A DNA stretch of 33,830 nucleotides. It comes from a virus. Lineage: Duplodnaviria; Heunggongvirae; Uroviricota; Caudoviricetes. The stretch is from the IMG/VR virus record IMGVR_UViG_2740892219_000011; one strand, written 5' to 3'. The position numbers and the translations under genes are program-made. This document shows positions 940-25,923 of this stretch, piece after piece; positions within the stretch are counted from its first letter, which is position 1, and every line of letters begins with the position of its first letter. Below the pieces are notes generated by a model. That model was not told where the DNA came from. It saw only the letters and a program-made list of their open reading frames with translations, and did not search any database.

Positions 940-2928
940 ATGAAAGAATGGTATACAGCAAAAGAGTTGCTCGGTTTGGCAGGTTTACCAAAGCAAGCCA
1001 CTAACATTACACGTAAGGCACAAAGAGAAGGCTGGGAGTTCAGGCAGGTTGCAGGGACTAAAGGTGTATCATTTGAATTCAATATCAAATCATTCCCTGT
1101 CGCATTACGTGCTGAAATTCTGTTGCAACAAGGGAGAATTGAAACAAGTCAGGGGTATTTTGAAATCGCCCGCCCCACGCTGGAAGCCCATGATTATGAT
1201 CGTGAGGCACTGTGGAGCAAATGGGATAACGCCAGCGATTCCCAGCGCAGACTTGCTGAAAAATGGTTGCCTGCGGTTCAGGCTGCAGACGAAATGCTGA
1301 ACCAGGGGATTTCAACGAAAACGGCTTTTGCGACCGTTGCAGGGCATTACCAGGTCAGCGCATCCACTTTGCGGGACAAGTATTACCAGGTACAGAAGTT
1401 TGCGAAGCCTGACTGGGCGGCTGCACTTGTTGATGGACGTGGAGCATCCCGTCGCAATGTTCACAAAAGTGAATTTGACGAGGATGCCTGGCAGTTTCTG
1501 ATTGCAGATTATCTGCGACCGGAAAAACCCGCCTTCCGCAAATGTTATGAGCGTCTGGAACTGGCAGCCCGCGAGCATGGCTGGAGTATTCCCTCCCGTG
1601 CCACGGCCTTTCGCCGGATTCAGCAACTGGACGAGGCAATGGTTGTTGCCTGTCGTGAAGGTGAACATGCACTGATGCATCTGATACCGGCACAGCAGCG
1701 AACTGTGGAACACCTGGACGCCATGCAGTGGATCAACGGCGACGGTTATCTGCATAACGTCTTTGTACGCTGGTTTAACGGTGATGTGATCCGTCCGAAA
1801 ACATGGTTCTGGCAGGATGTGAAAACCCGAAAAATTCTGGGCTGGCGCTGCGATGTGAGCGAGAACATTGATTCAATTCGCCTCTCGTTCATGGATGTTG
1901 TGACTCGCTACGGTATCCCGGAGGATTTTCACATCACCATTGATAACACCCGTGGTGCTGCGAATAAATGGCTGACGGGAGGCGCGCCCAATCGCTACCG
2001 CTTTAAGGTAAAAGAGGACGATCCAAAAGGACTGTTTTTACTGATGGGGGCGAAAATGCACTGGACAAGCGTTGTTGCCGGTAAAGGCTGGGGCCAGGCA
2101 AAACCTGTTGAACGTGCTTTCGGTGTTGGTGGGCTTGAGGAATACGTTGATAAGCATCCGGCACTGGCTGGCGCATATACGGGGCCTAATCCGCAGGCAA
2201 AACCTGATAACTATGGCGACCGCGCTGTTGATGCAGAGCTGTTTCTGAAAACCCTTGCCGAAGGTGTGGCGATGTTCAATGCCAGAACAGGCCGTGAAAC
2301 AGAAATGTGCGGAGGCAAACTTTCGTTTGATGACGTTTTTGAGCGTGAATACGCCAGAACGATTGTGCGTAAGCCTACCGAAGAGCAAAAACGGATGCTG
2401 TTACTGCCTGCCGAGGCAGTGAACGTTTCACGTAAAGGCGAGTTCGCGCTTAAAGTTGGTGGCTCCCTTAAAGGTGCGAAAAACGTTTATTACAACATGG
2501 CGTTAATGAATGCCGGAGTAAAAAAAGTTGTGGTCAGATTTGATCCACAGCAGTTACACAGCACGGTTTATTGCTACACCCTTGACGGTCGGTTTATCTG
2601 TGAAGCGGAATGTCTGGCACCTGTTGCGTTTAATGATGCTGCGGCAGGCCGTGAATATCGCCGCCGCCAGAAACAACTGAAATCTGCGACGAAAGCAGCA
2701 ATTAAGGCACAGAAACAAATGGATGCACTGGAAGTGGCAGAGCTGCTGCCGCAGATAGCCGAACCTGAAGCACCAGAATCACGAATTGTCGGCATTTTCC
2801 GGCCTTCCGGTAATACGGAACGAGTGAAGAATCAGGAGCGTGATGATGAATACGAAACTGAGCGTGATGAATATCTGAATCATTCGCTGGATATTCTGGA
2901 ACAGAACAGACGTAAAAAAGCCATTTAA
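940..2928 (+). CDS. A: Transposase MuA (DDE transposase), 662 aa
   Basis: Length, position after ner, and long stretches (e.g. [38 protein letters not shown]..., [19 protein letters not shown]) recognisable as MuA; N-terminal about 60 aa diverge, as expected for a different enhancer/operator specificity. Confidence 0.95.
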
Positions 2929-21222: not shown

Positions 21223-21412
21223 ACCCGCAGCGGGAAAAGCCATCCGTGACCCGCTCACGATGAAATTACTGGCTCCGGAGGGAGAAGAAAAGCCCCGTAA
21301 CAGTTTCTGGATACGTCGCCTTGCAGCCGGTGATGTGGTTGAAGTCGGGAACACCGAAAACACGGCGGATGATACCGACGCTGCGCCGAAAAAACGGAGT
21401 AAATCGAAATGA
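21206..21412 (+). CDS. Small hypothetical protein, 68 aa
   Basis: ORF between K and the sheath gene with overlapping start and stop. Confidence 0.55.
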
Positions 21413-22896
21413 GCGATATTTCATTTAACGCGATCCCGTCAGATGTTCGCGTTCCTCTGACGTATATCGAATTTGATAACAGTAATGCCGTCAGCGGAAC
21501 ACCGGCACCCCGTCAGCGCGTGCTGATGTTCGGGCAAAGCGGAAGTAAAGCCAGTGCGGCACCAAACGTGCCTGTCCGTATCCGTTCCGGCTCACAGGCC
21601 AGTGCGGCGTTTGGTCAGGGTTCCATGCTGGCACTGATGGCAGATGCATTCCTGAACGCTAACCGCGTGGCGGAGCTGTGGTGTATTCCGCAGGGGAACG
21701 GCACCGGTAATGCTGCTGTCGGTGAAATTTCACTGTCAGGAACGGCAGGCGAAAACGGCTCGCTTGTGACTTACATTGCCGGTCAGCGACTGGCGGTATC
21801 TGTCGCAGCAGGTGCAACGGGAGCGGCGCTGGCTGACCTGCTGGTTGCCCGAATCAAAGGCCAGCCGGATTTACCGGTGACGGCAGAAGTTCGCGCAGAC
21901 AGCGGAGATGATGACACCCATGCAGATGTGGTTCTGAGTGCAAAATTTACGGGTGCATTATCTGCCGTGGACGTGCGCTGGAACTATTACGCGGGTGAAA
22001 CCACCCCTTACGGGATTATCACGGCATTCAAAGCCGCCTCCGGGAAAAATGGCAACCCGGATATCAGCGCAAGTATCGCGGGAATGGGCGATCTGCAATA
22101 CAAATATATTGTGATGCCCTATACCGATGAACCGAACCTGAATCTGTTACGCACTGAATTGCAGGAACGCTGGGGACCGGTCAATCAGGCTGATGGTTTT
22201 GCCGTGACAGTGCTGTCCGGCACGTATGGGGATATTTCTACGTTTGGTGTCAGTCGTAATGACCATCTGATCTCCTGTATGGGGATTGCCGGTGCACCGG
22301 AACCGTCATATCTGTACGCCGCCACACTGTGTGCCGTTGCCAGCCAGGCGCTTTCCATCGACCCGGCGCGTCCGCTCCAGACGCTGACGTTGCCCGGAAG
22401 AATGCCGCCTGCGGTGGGGGATCGTTTTACCTGGTCAGAACGTAATGCGCTGCTGTTTGACGGCATCTCCACGTTTAACGTGAATGATGGTGGTGAAATG
22501 CAGATTGAACGCATGATCACGATGTACCGCACAAACAAGTACGGTGACAGTGATCCGTCTTATCTGAACGTGAATACCATCGCCACGCTGAGTTATCTGC
22601 GTTATTCGCTGCGAACCCGCATCACGCAGAAATTCCCGAACTACAAGCTGGCAAGTGATGGCACCCGCTTTGCCACCGGTCAGGCCGTGGTGACGCCATC
22701 CGTGATCAAAACGGAACTGCTGGCACTGTTTGAAGAATGGGAAAACGCCGGACTGGTCGAGGATTTCGACACGTTCAAAGAGGAGCTGTATGTGGCACGT
22801 AACAAGGACGACAAAGACCGTCTTGATGTGCTGTGCGGCCCGAATCTGATTAACCAGTTCCGCATTTTCGCGGCACAAGTTCAGTTCATTCTGTAA
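21409..22896 (+). CDS. L: Contractile tail sheath protein, 495 aa
   Basis: Size and position followed by a tail tube-sized gene; matches Mu L. Confidence 0.9.
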
Positions 22897-22905
22897 GGAG
22901 CATTT

Positions 22906-23262
22906 ATGGCTGGAAATCAGCGTCAGGGGGTGGCGTTCATCCGTGTCAATGGCATGGAGCTTGAAACGATGGAAGGGGCCTCCTTCACACCTTCCGGCAT
23001 CACCCGTGAAGAAGTGACCGGCTCGCGGGTTTATGGCTGGAAAGGTAAACCACGTGCCGCAAAGCTGGAATGCAAAATTCCGGGCGGTGGTGATATCGGT
23101 CTGGATGAAATCATCGGCTGGGAAAATATCACGGCAGAGTTTCAGGCAGACACCGGTGAAACCTGGATGATGGCGAATGCCTGGCAGGCAGATGAACCGA
23201 AAAACGACGGCGGCGAAATTTCGCTGGTACTGATGGCAAAACAAAGCAAACGCATTGCATAA
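22906..23262 (+). CDS. M: Tail tube protein, 118 aa
   Basis: Small gene directly after sheath; RBS AAGGAGCATTT. Confidence 0.85.
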   Translation: MAGNQRQGVAFIRVNGMELETMEGASFTPSGITREEVTGSRVYGWKGKPRAAKLECKIPGGGDIGLDEIIGWENITAEFQADTGETWMMANAWQADEPKNDGGEISLVLMAKQSKRIA

Positions 23263-23271
23263 GGGGAAACA

Positions 23272-23706
23272 ATGGACGAAATGAATTTAGGTCCTGAAGC
23301 ACAGGAACTGCATGACAGCATTGTGGCAGAAATTCAGTCCGGCGTGCTGAAACTGAAAGACGGCCTGCCGTTCGGCACCGGTGACGAGACTGAAATGCAG
23401 TATGACGTGACACTGCGTGAACTGACCGCAGGCGATATGATTGATGCACAGGCGGCTGCTGAAAAGCTGGTAATGAGCAAGGAAGGTCCGGTGCTGGTCA
23501 GTTCCCCGTCCCGGATGGGACTGGAAATGCTGCGCCGACAGATTGCCAGCGTGGGCTGCATCAAAGGCCCGTTGTCGATGGCGCTGATTCGTAAGCTGTC
23601 TGTCGATGACTTCCAGCGTCTGTCGCTGGCCACAGAAATGTACGACATGGCTGTGGCGGCATCGCTGACGCAAGAACGGGGGCGAGTGGCTGCGGTGCCG
23701 GAATGA
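23272..23706 (+). CDS. Y: Tail assembly chaperone (tape-measure chaperone), 144 aa
   Basis: Acidic protein located between the tube and tape-measure genes; an alternate frame is open from near its 3' end to the tape-measure start. Confidence 0.75.
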   Translation: MDEMNLGPEAQELHDSIVAEIQSGVLKLKDGLPFGTGDETEMQYDVTLRELTAGDMIDAQAAAEKLVMSKEGPVLVSSPSRMGLEMLRRQIASVGCIKGPLSMALIRKLSVDDFQRLSLATEMYDMAVAASLTQERGRVAAVPE

Positions 23707-23850
23707 TATTGAGAAAGCGGCGACAGCGATTGGCGTTATTCTGAAAAGTGGCCCGGAATGGGCCTTATCCCTTCCGCTGTCCCGCTTTTTCCGGCACTGC
23801 CAGCAGGCTAAAACCCTCTCTCAATATCACCGTTAAATCAGGAAATCTCT
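23707..23850 (+). promoter_or_regulatory. Y/tape-measure gap: candidate late promoter motif and candidate frameshift-extension region
   Basis: Contains CTTATCCC...TCCCGCTTTTT at 23764-23790; the +1 frame relative to Y is open across the whole gap. Confidence 0.4.
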
Positions 23851-25923
23851 ATGACCGGGAAACGCTTAAAGGCGTCTGTCATTATTGATCTTAATGGCAA
23901 TCTTTCCCGGCGTTCCCGCCAGTATTCGAACCAGATAAACGCCCTGTCCCGTAGCGGACAAAGTTCCCTTCGTGCCCTGCGTATGGAGGTTGTGCGCGTT
24001 TCTGGTGCCATTGACAGAATGGGTTCTCTGTCAACCCGTACATTCCGAATGCTGTCAGCCGGGGCGCTGGGTATCGCTGGCGTGGGTTACACCGCCAATA
24101 AACTGTTTATTGGTGCAGCCGCCCAGCGTGAGCAGCAGATCATCGCCATGAACTCGCTGTATCACGGCGATAAGGTCAGAGCGCAGGCCATGATGGCCTG
24201 GGCGAAGCAGAACGCGAAGGACACCACGTGGGGGCTGAGTGGTGTTCTTGATGAGATCCGTTCGTCGAAAGGCTTCGGCATGACGGATGAACAGACGAAA
24301 CAGTTCATCACCATGTTGCAGGATCAGGGGGCCATGCACGGCTGGGATTTACCAACTGCACAGGGTGCCTCACTGCAACTGAAACAGATGTTTGCCCGCC
24401 AGCAAATCACAGCGGCGGATGCCAACCTGCTGACCGGTTACGGTATTAACGTTTACCAGACGCTGGCGGATGCACTGGGTAAAGACGTTAAGGATATCCG
24501 CAAACAAGGTGAAAAAGGCAAGCTGGGTCTGAAATCCATTCTGACGGTATTCAGAACGCTGTCAGAACAGTCAAAAGGTGCACAGGCCAGTGCGATGAAC
24601 TCCTGGGACGGGATGTTCGCCCAGATGGAAGCTAACCTGCTTGAATTTCGCATAAAGGTGGCAAACAGCGGCCCCTTTGAAGAAATCAAGAACGAGATGC
24701 GCCGGGTGCTTAACTGGCACGACATGGCGGATAAATCCGGGGAACTTGACGCACTGGCAGAAAACATTGGTCAGAAATTTCTGACCACGTTCAGAACGGT
24801 AAAAATCGCGGCGCAGGAATTATGGCGCTGGCTGAAACCGGGTAAAGATGCGCTGGCATGGGTTGACCAGAATATTGTCAGCCTGAAAAAACTGGCTGCT
24901 GTTCTGGTGTCTGTCTGGCTTGCCAATAAAGCCCTGAGAGCAGGCTGGGCCGTGGCAAAACCCTCATGGCAGGTTGCCAGTTATCCGTTTAAAACCGGGC
25001 GTCGTATGTGGCGCTGGATGCGAAACCGCAAACGTGGGCAGGCAGGTCTGCCGGTCCCGGATGCCATGACGTCTGAGACGCTGTTGCAGGGTATCGGCAT
25101 TCAGCGTGTGTTTGTCATCAACTGGCCCCGTGGATTTGGTGGCTACGGGAGTGGCGGCGGTCGTCGCGGACGGAGCGGCGGAAGAATGGCCCCGCTGTTA
25201 CCCCGCCAGCCGTTATTGCTGTCCGGGCCACAGCCGCTGGCATTACCTGCACCACGCCCTGTACTGGCATTACCCCCACCCGGCGTACCGGTAACAGCAC
25301 GGCCTGCACCATTACCTTTACCCGGTAAATCCGGTCTTCTGAGCAGGCTTGCAGGCAGTGCTGCCGGGCAACTGGTTACGGGAACGGTCGGAAAGCTGGC
25401 TGATGCCGGGCGTGCTGTTGGCGGGTGGTTTTCCGGTATCGGAAACAAACTTGCAGGCAGTGCGATCGGTCGGGTTGTGACAAAAGGTGCCGGGGCGCTG
25501 GGCTGGATGGGGAAAGGTGCCGGTCGTGCGTTGTCACGTCTGGGTGGCCCGGTAATGGGGGCACTCCAGCTTGCCCCCGTCCTGATGGATGAGCAGGCGT
25601 CAACCCATGAAAAAGCAGGTGCAATTGGCAGTACAGCCGGTGCATGGCTCGGCGGTGCCGTTGGCAGCCTTGCCGGACCGCTGGGTACGGTTGCCGGTGC
25701 CACGCTGGGCAGTGTCGCCGGGGAGTATCTGGGCGGTTTTGTAACCGACCTGTATCAGAAATGGACGGCCCCGGATAAGGAACCGCAGGAACAAAAAGTG
25801 AATGCGGAAGCCTCGCTGCGCGTCGAACTTGGCGAGGGGTTACGTCTGGCCAGTTCCCGTGTCACCGAGGATGGTATGGGGCTGAATATTTACGCGGGCG
25901 ATAACTACATTACAGGCTGGTAA
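23851..25923 (+). CDS. Tail tape measure protein, 690 aa
   Basis: Largest tail ORF, downstream of sheath/tube/chaperone; helical N-terminal part and a Gly/Pro/Ala-rich low-complexity C-terminal third. Confidence 0.85.

Follow-up and report, generated by a model that had tools for sequence, protein, structure and literature searches.

In a viral DNA of 33,830 nucleotides (nt; IMG/VR record IMGVR_UViG_2740892219_000011, called the window below and always meant at its full length), the region from the start of gene Y, which encodes gp41, to shortly before the tape measure gene is very probably the programmed -2 ribosomal frameshift of phage Mu, through which two tail assembly chaperones are made from one start codon. 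By itself this is nothing new, as the element is the already published and database-annotated gp41/FS-gp41 -2 frameshift of Mu. The reading-frame geometry, the conservation of the site, the coding signature of the extension and the conservation of RNA structure are shown here; the shift and its -2 nature were shown by others. Beyond the known shift, the heptamer kept throughout the family, its four-G variants, a 3' helix of fixed position and a database conflict at residue 138 may be of interest to specialists.

The window is, judged by its sequence, a phage Mu strain. Positions 23200-23900 are 100% identical to Escherichia virus Mu_3F6 and 99.0% identical (701 nt) to phage Mu AF083977. The gp41 of the window is identical to Mu gp41, and within gp41 and its extension the window differs from the Mu reference only silently, by three changes in the extension and a single one in gp41 close to the shift site. 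The substitutions in the extension (23767, 23770 and 23773) all fall on third positions of the +1 (equivalently -2) frame.

In AF083977.1 two coding sequences (CDSs) leave one start, Mu_41 (‘tail assembly chaperone’) and the two-piece Mu_56 (UIW09302.1), which spans the equivalent of window positions 23272..23836. The latter carries the GenBank notes ‘tail assembly chaperone frameshift product’ and ‘verified -2 translational frameshift in PMID 15469818’. Conceptual translation of the window with a -2 shift yielded the Swiss-Prot entry P0DJY4, ‘Probable tail assembly protein FS-gp41’, with every residue identical, while the form of the product with Arg at position 138 is UIW09302.1. In the secondary literature Mu is given as the first natural -2 frameshift (PMC5009743, PMC3498833, PMC3458567, PMC3622925, PMC4378225), with a shift efficiency of about 2.2% (PMC3498833). 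The shift has been described as a tandem -2 slip on GG_GGG_CGA, with the -2 frame offering better re-pairing than the -1 frame to the tRNA-Arg (anticodon ICG) of the A site (PMC3458567), and in a purified translation system the Mu 10-mer alone gave 14% shifting into the extension frame (bioRxiv 2025.10.02.679949). An earlier note on this DNA, drawn from the letters alone, had proposed a recoded, C-terminally extended tail assembly chaperone shifting at CGG GGG CGA, in agreement with GenBank, Swiss-Prot and the secondary literature; the -2 shift that it named as reported for Mu at this position matches the GenBank note and the reviews.

Reading frames and the proposed slip

The features of the shift, with product lengths in amino acids (aa), are the following.

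23272..23706, + strand: gp41 (gene Y), tail assembly chaperone, the zero-frame product of 144 aa, ending with TGA at 23704-23706 (translation, Pfam, PHROG)
23677..23685, + strand: shift site CGG GGG CGA, with the core heptamer G_GGG_CGA at 23679-23685, P-site codon GGG and A-site codon CGA
23681..23836, + strand: extension in the +1 (= -2) frame, (G or R)EWLRCRNDIEKAATAIGVILKSGPEWALSLPLSRFFRHCQQAKTLSQYHR, ending with TAA at 23834-23836 (translation, PHROG 12783)
23272..23836, + strand: FS-gp41, the frameshift product of 188 aa, as join(23272..23685, 23684..23836) for a tandem slip (Arg138) or join(23272..23682, 23681..23836) for a slip in the P site only (Gly138)
23682..23744, + strand: dead-end -1 frame, about 20 codons that a -1 slip on the G run would add (three-frame translation)

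We checked the frames by three-frame translation of the window. Relative to gp41, the +1 (= -2) frame has a stop at 23666-23668, followed by 55 open codons (23669-23833) and by TAA at 23834-23836, which bears out the stop-free alternate frame that the earlier note had read from 23669 to 23833. The note was also right that this frame ends shortly before the tape-measure ATG (23851) and that the -1 frame soon closes, with small corrections to its counts: the gap is 14 nt and not 15, and the TGA of the -1 frame, at 23742-23744, lies 12 and not about 13 codons beyond the Y stop. CGG GGG CGA stands in the Y frame at 23677-23685, as it had claimed. The canonical -1 arrangement (X_XXY_YYZ with an open -1 frame) was not found here, for the step from CGA to GCG re-pairs at 0/3 positions and the stop follows early. 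The open frame is by itself unremarkable, because 55 stop-free codons in the given frame are kept by 13.7% of dinucleotide shuffles of 23669-23850; it is comparison with relatives that supplies its significance.

According to the proposed mechanism, most ribosomes would read gp41 through to the TGA at 23704-23706 and a few per cent would slip two bases back on G_GGG_CGA (GG_GGG_CGA in Mu), at the moment when tRNA-Gly is on GGG 23680-23682 in the P site and the rare CGA 23683-23685 is in the A site. The tRNA-Gly would re-pair with GGG 23678-23680, where G 23678 makes the match perfect, and the tRNA-Arg (anticodon ICG), if already bound, would re-pair at 2/3 positions with GGC 23681-23683, including an I:C pair; a -1 move would instead bring it onto GCG with 0/3 pairs. 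The slipped ribosomes would then read on to the TAA at 23834-23836 and produce FS-gp41 of 188 aa. Residue 138 (window 23680-23686) is Arg in GenBank UIW09302.1 (...QERG-R-EWLRC) and Gly in Swiss-Prot P0DJY4 (...QERG-G-EWLRC). Arg138 corresponds to a tandem -2 slip and Gly138 to a -2 slip in the P site only, with products of equal length, so the disagreement between the two databases marks the question of whether the slip is tandem or confined to the P site.

Conservation of the shift site and of the extension

The relatives comprised ten annotated phages or genomes with a gp41 identity of 35-90%, 80 IMG/VR contigs seeded on Mu-like gp41 (first survey) and 80 more seeded on distant relatives; the first set consisted of 91 loci (68 distinct sequences) and the second of 80 loci (62 distinct). 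The heptamer G_GGG_CGA was invariant in all 171 loci (91 + 80), down to about 37% protein identity and across phages of Escherichia, Yersinia, Shigella, Klebsiella, Pasteurella, Vibrio, Shewanella and Alteromonadaceae. Its zero-frame reading as G GGG CGA, towards the 3' end of the gp41 homologue, is common to all of these loci. Position counts in the 68 distinct sequences revealed seven fixed heptamer bases between two variable flanks; immediately before the heptamer, 47 of the sequences have G, 19 have A and 2 have C. In the protein alignment R-G-R are the only invariant residues of the variable gp41 C-terminal tail, and in some clades the zero-frame stop comes directly after CGA (GGG CGA TAG) or one codon later.

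The codon that ends in the first G of the heptamer changes between CGG, AGG, AAG, CAG, GAG and TCG (Arg, Lys, Gln, Glu, Ser). Since ribosomes read the +1 frame only from the slip onward, coding cannot account for the fixed G at this wobble position. In the 24 long open reading frames (ORFs) of the window, CGA makes up 5.0% of the Arg codons (3.5 per thousand), CGG makes up 12.7% of the Arg codons and GGG 18.6% of the Gly codons. Of the rare Arg codons flanking the G run, which the earlier note had put forward together with that run as a plausible shift site, CGA is indeed rare, but the upstream CGG is dispensable, as it varies in the relatives and only its last G is fixed.

The same extension would be reached by a +1 slip, in which the P-site tRNA-Gly moves from GGG to GGC while the slow CGA leaves the A site empty, yielding a product of 187 aa (...QERG-EWLRC...). 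The +1 and -2 slips lead to one frame, CGA is rare in the phage, -2 re-pairing would be imperfect in 21 relatives with four Gs, and the reporter of the 2025 preprint (bioRxiv 2025.10.02.679949) does not separate -2 from +1. Nevertheless, database notes and reviews give the -2 shift as verified, and the 187-aa product had no Mu entry in the protein collection searched. Furthermore, the G two bases before the P-site codon is invariant although it is the wobble base of changing codons, and a +1 slip would not need this base; its invariance argues for a backward slip of tRNA-Gly. We regard a +1 slip in Mu as very unlikely and retain the -2 shift.

Only four Gs were present in 21 of the 80 IMG/VR loci of the first survey, where CAG, TCG, AAG or GAG precedes GGG CGA (L046-L049, L051-L056, L058, L060, L068-L072, L075, L080, L084 and L087, with the site at about 1540-1570). 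Several of them have the zero-frame stop right behind CGA (GGG CGA TAG). We take the four-G sites for real variants and not sequencing errors, because their zero and +1 frames are otherwise arranged as in Mu. Re-pairing of tRNA-Gly after a -2 slip is perfect in Mu and in about three quarters of the first set, and 2/3 in the four-G variants. Two points have to be set against the -2 reading: in the four-G phages tRNA-Gly would come to stand on AGG or CGG with a first-position mismatch, and the choice of -2 over +1 is founded on database notes, secondary citations and the comparative argument. The four-G relatives either tolerate a P-site first-position mismatch after the -2 slip or shift +1.

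Two further observations concern the site. The ‘GA’ at 23674-23675, in the Glu/Asp codon two places before GGG, is nearly invariant between variable neighbours (of the 68 distinct sequences, 60 have the G and 64 the A). It may reflect protein constraint or be part of the signal, its codon having just passed out of the E site once GGG occupies the P site. GGGGGCGA occurs a second time at window positions 2046-2053, within a 662-aa ORF (940..2928) that presumably encodes transposase A; it was considered as an equivalent shift site and rejected, since its register differs (ATG GGG GCG AAA).

Conservation of the open alternate frame among Mu-like phages had been named in the earlier note as a check on the proposal, and each of the 91 loci in the first set had this frame open from the heptamer as far as the start of the tape measure gene; an early stop ends their -1 frame as well. 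Among the IMG/VR loci of the first survey 79 are intact (L039 contains indels), and in these the +1 frame continues for 100-136 nt past the Y stop; at the 11 loci where the start of the tape measure gene was annotated or checked, it ends +14 to -23 nt from that start. In the distant relatives L006-L011, L057, L066, L073, L088 and L092 the extension ORF overlaps the tape-measure start by 8-23 nt. The extension evolves as coding sequence: over 126 nt past the gp41 stop in nine close relatives, the ratio of nonsynonymous to synonymous polymorphism (pN/pS) was 0.31 for the +1 frame, compared with 0.93 for the -1 frame and 1.33 for the zero frame. Its first residues, G-E/D, are conserved directly after the site. 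PHROG 12783 (E 5e-30, function unknown) was the only match of the extension, which by itself hit no Pfam family.

Records of phage D108 annotate a 48-aa protein, ‘41.5’, at this place (L002:991-1137, corresponding to window 23690-23836), so that the downstream ORF might be read as a separate small gene with its own start. The annotated CDS, however, begins at CTG (window 23690), and the extension frame from 23669 to 23833 holds no ATG, GTG or TTG, for which reason the D108 ‘41.5’ is an annotation artefact. Moreover, the open frame always starts at or before the heptamer, directly after which G-E/D is conserved. A separate gene is barely conceivable here, and the ORF is best understood as the extension of gp41.

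Slippage of RNA polymerase could also join gp41 and the extension in frame, if two Gs were added or one dropped. Homopolymer runs are classic slippage sites, and the addition of GG gives exactly the Swiss-Prot product (...GG-EW...). P0002, P0008 and L039, moreover, indicate a stretch that readily suffers 1-nt deletions, whether in the DNA or in its sequencing. A run of four or five Gs is nonetheless far shorter than the roughly 8-9 identical bases generally known from bacterial slippage sites, and an invariant CGA followed by a helix at 6-nt spacing from the A-site codon makes sense only for a ribosomal event. We thus consider transcriptional slippage extremely unlikely and ribosomal shifting the better account. 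As to the fused genes themselves, in L039 (1575-1700) a 1-nt deletion in the G run fuses gp41 and the extension in frame, with a second 1-nt deletion in a later G5 run, and two Logan assemblies contain in-frame fused genes of 187 aa (proteins P0002 and P0008; ...QERGEWLRC and ...QERGQWLRC). These three fusions are either homopolymer sequencing errors or prophages in which the fusion has become fixed.

A candidate RNA helix downstream of the site

The RNA that follows the heptamer can form a helix, whose parts in the window are the following.

23689..23703, + strand: 5' arm of the candidate 3' stimulatory helix (GCUGCGGUGCCGGAA), from RNAalifold, pair counts and pairing probability
23789..23804, + strand: 3' arm (UUCCGGCACUGC-C-AGC) of the long-range helix, within extension codons F-R-H-C-Q
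23713..23789, + strand: inner domain, in the Mu clade only, with 23713-23720 paired to 23782-23789, 23722-23728 to 23775-23781, and a hairpin of 23750-23754 with 23760-23764

A conserved core of 10 bp pairs 23692-23701 (GCGGUGCCGG) with 23791-23800 (CCGGCACUGC), the arms lying about 100 nt apart in Mu. Its 5' arm begins 6 nt after CGA, and in the Mu clade three more pairs can cut the spacer to 3 nt. A 3' stimulator is recognised as a stable, conserved helix about 5-9 nt after the A-site codon; structurally the core corresponds to this, and its 6-nt spacing is the classical geometry of a 3' frameshift stimulator. The segment 23686-23808 folded with a minimum free energy of -59.5 kcal/mol (z -4.34; 0/200 shuffles as stable) into a closing helix, two inner helices and an apical hairpin. 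RNAalifold recovered these elements in the Mu subgroup, where the inner helices show partial covariation. When 23670-23790 was folded there was no signal (z -0.5), because this stretch cuts off the 3' arm.

For the core we used 37 distinct sequences from all clades that have the extension motifs ‘..QCR..’ and ‘..RHC..’. The 10 bp were kept in 37/37 of them by RNAalifold, with 369 of 370 cells paired. Because the arms encode conserved peptides, constraint was tested at the nucleotide level. The four third codon positions of the 3' arm had a mean entropy of 0.23 bits, compared with 1.26 for the other 31 of the extension (permutation P = 0.0004), and under synonymous re-coding of the 3' arm with phage codon usage the observed pairing was rarely reached (P 0.006 for Watson-Crick pairing, P 0.012 for energy). 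The Arg codon of the 3' arm is CGG, or CGA only opposite a partner U; CGU occurred once and CGC never, and these two together form 72% of the Arg codons in the phage. Compensatory changes from G-C to A-U occur in L037, where both bases are exchanged and each of the two peptides is altered with them (Cys becomes Tyr, and His becomes Tyr), with a further one in L038. The helix is supported by shuffle and slid-partner controls; covariation is limited, as most columns never vary.

The position of the 5' arm appears to be kept also where the partner is not. Among 37 representatives less than 85% identical, with control positions taken within the same loci, the pairing probability rose sharply at nt 7 and averaged 0.885 for nt 7-16 after CGA, versus 0.578 at 222 control positions (Mann-Whitney p = 1.6e-16). 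Of the clades without a Mu-type 3' arm, the L054/L068 clade forms a local hairpin of 12-13 bp from the same start (z -5.5 and -4.8), a Pasteurellaceae-like clade forms one of 11-12 bp from the same start, and Vibrio- and Shewanella-like phages have a helix that likewise starts there, with a partner about 60 nt away (z -6.9 and -3.2). A duplex-energy test against mock sites was significant mainly in Mu-type clades (median empirical p 0.075), its design missing short-loop hairpins.

In the mechanism proposed here the helix would probably act as a 3' stimulator, with 23692-23701 and 23791-23800 closing a folded domain of 116 nt in Mu. Several results weigh against this role. Covariation is thin, with four pairs showing double changes, a number that 11/500 shuffles also reached, and the arms encode the conserved peptide motifs L-R/Q-C-R and F/Y-R-H-C. 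L007 and L008 have no significant fold, and RNAalifold over all 33 diverse representatives gave no single consensus structure, because the partner strand differs between clades. In addition, as the 10-mer alone sufficed in vitro, no more than modulation of the shift is left to the helix, which would tune its level, not create it. According to PMC3458567, -2 shifting is favoured by spacers 1-2 nt shorter than the -1 optimum, a preference which the 3-nt spacer option of the Mu clade might fit. On balance it is possible, though somewhat short of probable, that the helix after G_GGG_CGA is a genuine and undescribed stimulator with a fixed 5' arm and a partner relocated between clades and, jointly with this, that the four-G phages face the alternative set out above.

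Such a structure was not mentioned in the secondary literature consulted on the Mu shift, and the primary 2004 paper may describe it. A literature text query with the site sequence returned unrelated papers only, and Rfam had no family at this region. We saw no upstream stimulatory element at the Mu site. Between 23200 and 24000 neither strand had a promoter-like site, and the only terminator-like match was on the - strand, with none on the + strand. A side observation concerns the tip of the inner domain: its GGCCC/GGGCC hairpin at 23750-23764 is conserved in the 37 distinct sequences and encodes G-P-x-W, so that protein and RNA constraint are inseparable there.

The two chaperones, related systems and annotation

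The neighbouring genes are the following.

21409..22896, + strand: sheath gene L, upstream of gp41 (ORF list; AF083977 annotation)
22906..23262, + strand: tail tube gene M, upstream of gp41 (ORF list; AF083977 annotation)
23851..25923, + strand: tape measure protein gp42 of 690 aa, the presumed client of the chaperones (ORF list; AF083977 annotation)

The gene for gp41 lies between those for tail tube M and tape measure gp42, an order that is the same in every annotated relative. The protein belongs to the Pfam family Gp41_Mu (PF23746), which it matched with 116.4 bits over residues 28-137 (E 8.1e-34; cut-off 27 bits), and to PHROG 508, ‘tail assembly chaperone’ (E 9e-47). Against Phage_TAC_7 (PF10109; P2 E, Mu 41 and others) it reached 23.8 bits (E 4.6e-5), below the cut-off of 25, which weakly suggests a relationship but no membership by the Pfam threshold. 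No solved structure was matched by sequence, and a single-protein scan of genome contigs returned one locus only.

The gene position, the start-less overlapping ORF that fills the gap and the conserved slippery sequence are those of a chaperone pair of the G/GT type. By analogy with the gpG/gpGT paradigm of lambda (PMC5009743), from which we infer the chaperone mechanism, coating of the tape measure protein gp42 would fall to the N-terminal part that both forms share and recruitment of the tube to the rare extension, and a fixed ratio of the two forms would matter for tail assembly. The secondary literature yielded no report that this ratio is required in Mu. Neither gp41 nor FS-gp41 is expected in the virion, and in a recent cryo-EM (electron cryomicroscopy) study of Mu gp41 was not resolved and was called a probable chaperone.

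The gp41/FS-gp41 pair of Mu (Mup41, Mu_56; Xu, Hendrix and Duda 2004) is the same element as that of the window, with identical proteins, shift site and gene order. The pairs gpG/gpGT of lambda and gpE/gpE+E' of P2 are, as in Mu, encoded between the tail tube and tape measure genes (PMC5009743). They likewise pair an abundant short form with a rare one whose C-terminus is extended through a programmed frameshift close to the 3' end. Lambda and P2, however, slip -1 on X_XXY_YYZ (G_GGA_AAG in lambda), whereas Mu slips -2 on G_GGG_CGA and its -1 frame is a dead end. The arterivirus protein nsp2TF (of PRRSV, the virus of the porcine reproductive and respiratory syndrome) is also produced by a natural -2 shift that alters the C-terminus, and there too a -1 shift soon hits a stop (PMC5009743). 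Unlike Mu, PRRSV is a eukaryotic virus with the slip site G_GUU_UUU, and its stimulator is a viral protein complex bound downstream and no RNA helix (PMC5009743). The dnaX gene of E. coli resembles Mu in combining a bacterial slip site with a simple downstream RNA helix as 3' stimulator (PMC5009743), but it shifts -1 on A_AAA_AAG and has a local stem-loop and an upstream Shine-Dalgarno element, while the partner strand in Mu lies at a distance of about 100 nt.

Among prokaryotes Mu is the model of -2 frameshifting, and a 3' helix of fixed position together with natural four-G variants would be direct experimental handles on slipping by two bases versus one. The frameshift product is unannotated in RefSeq NC_000929.1, in SfMu, in the Yersinia vB_YpM Mu-like phages and in Mu_3F6, and many prophages likewise lack it. 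A simple and reliable rule for its annotation is an in-frame G_GGG_CGA from which the +1 frame stays open as far as the tape measure gene.

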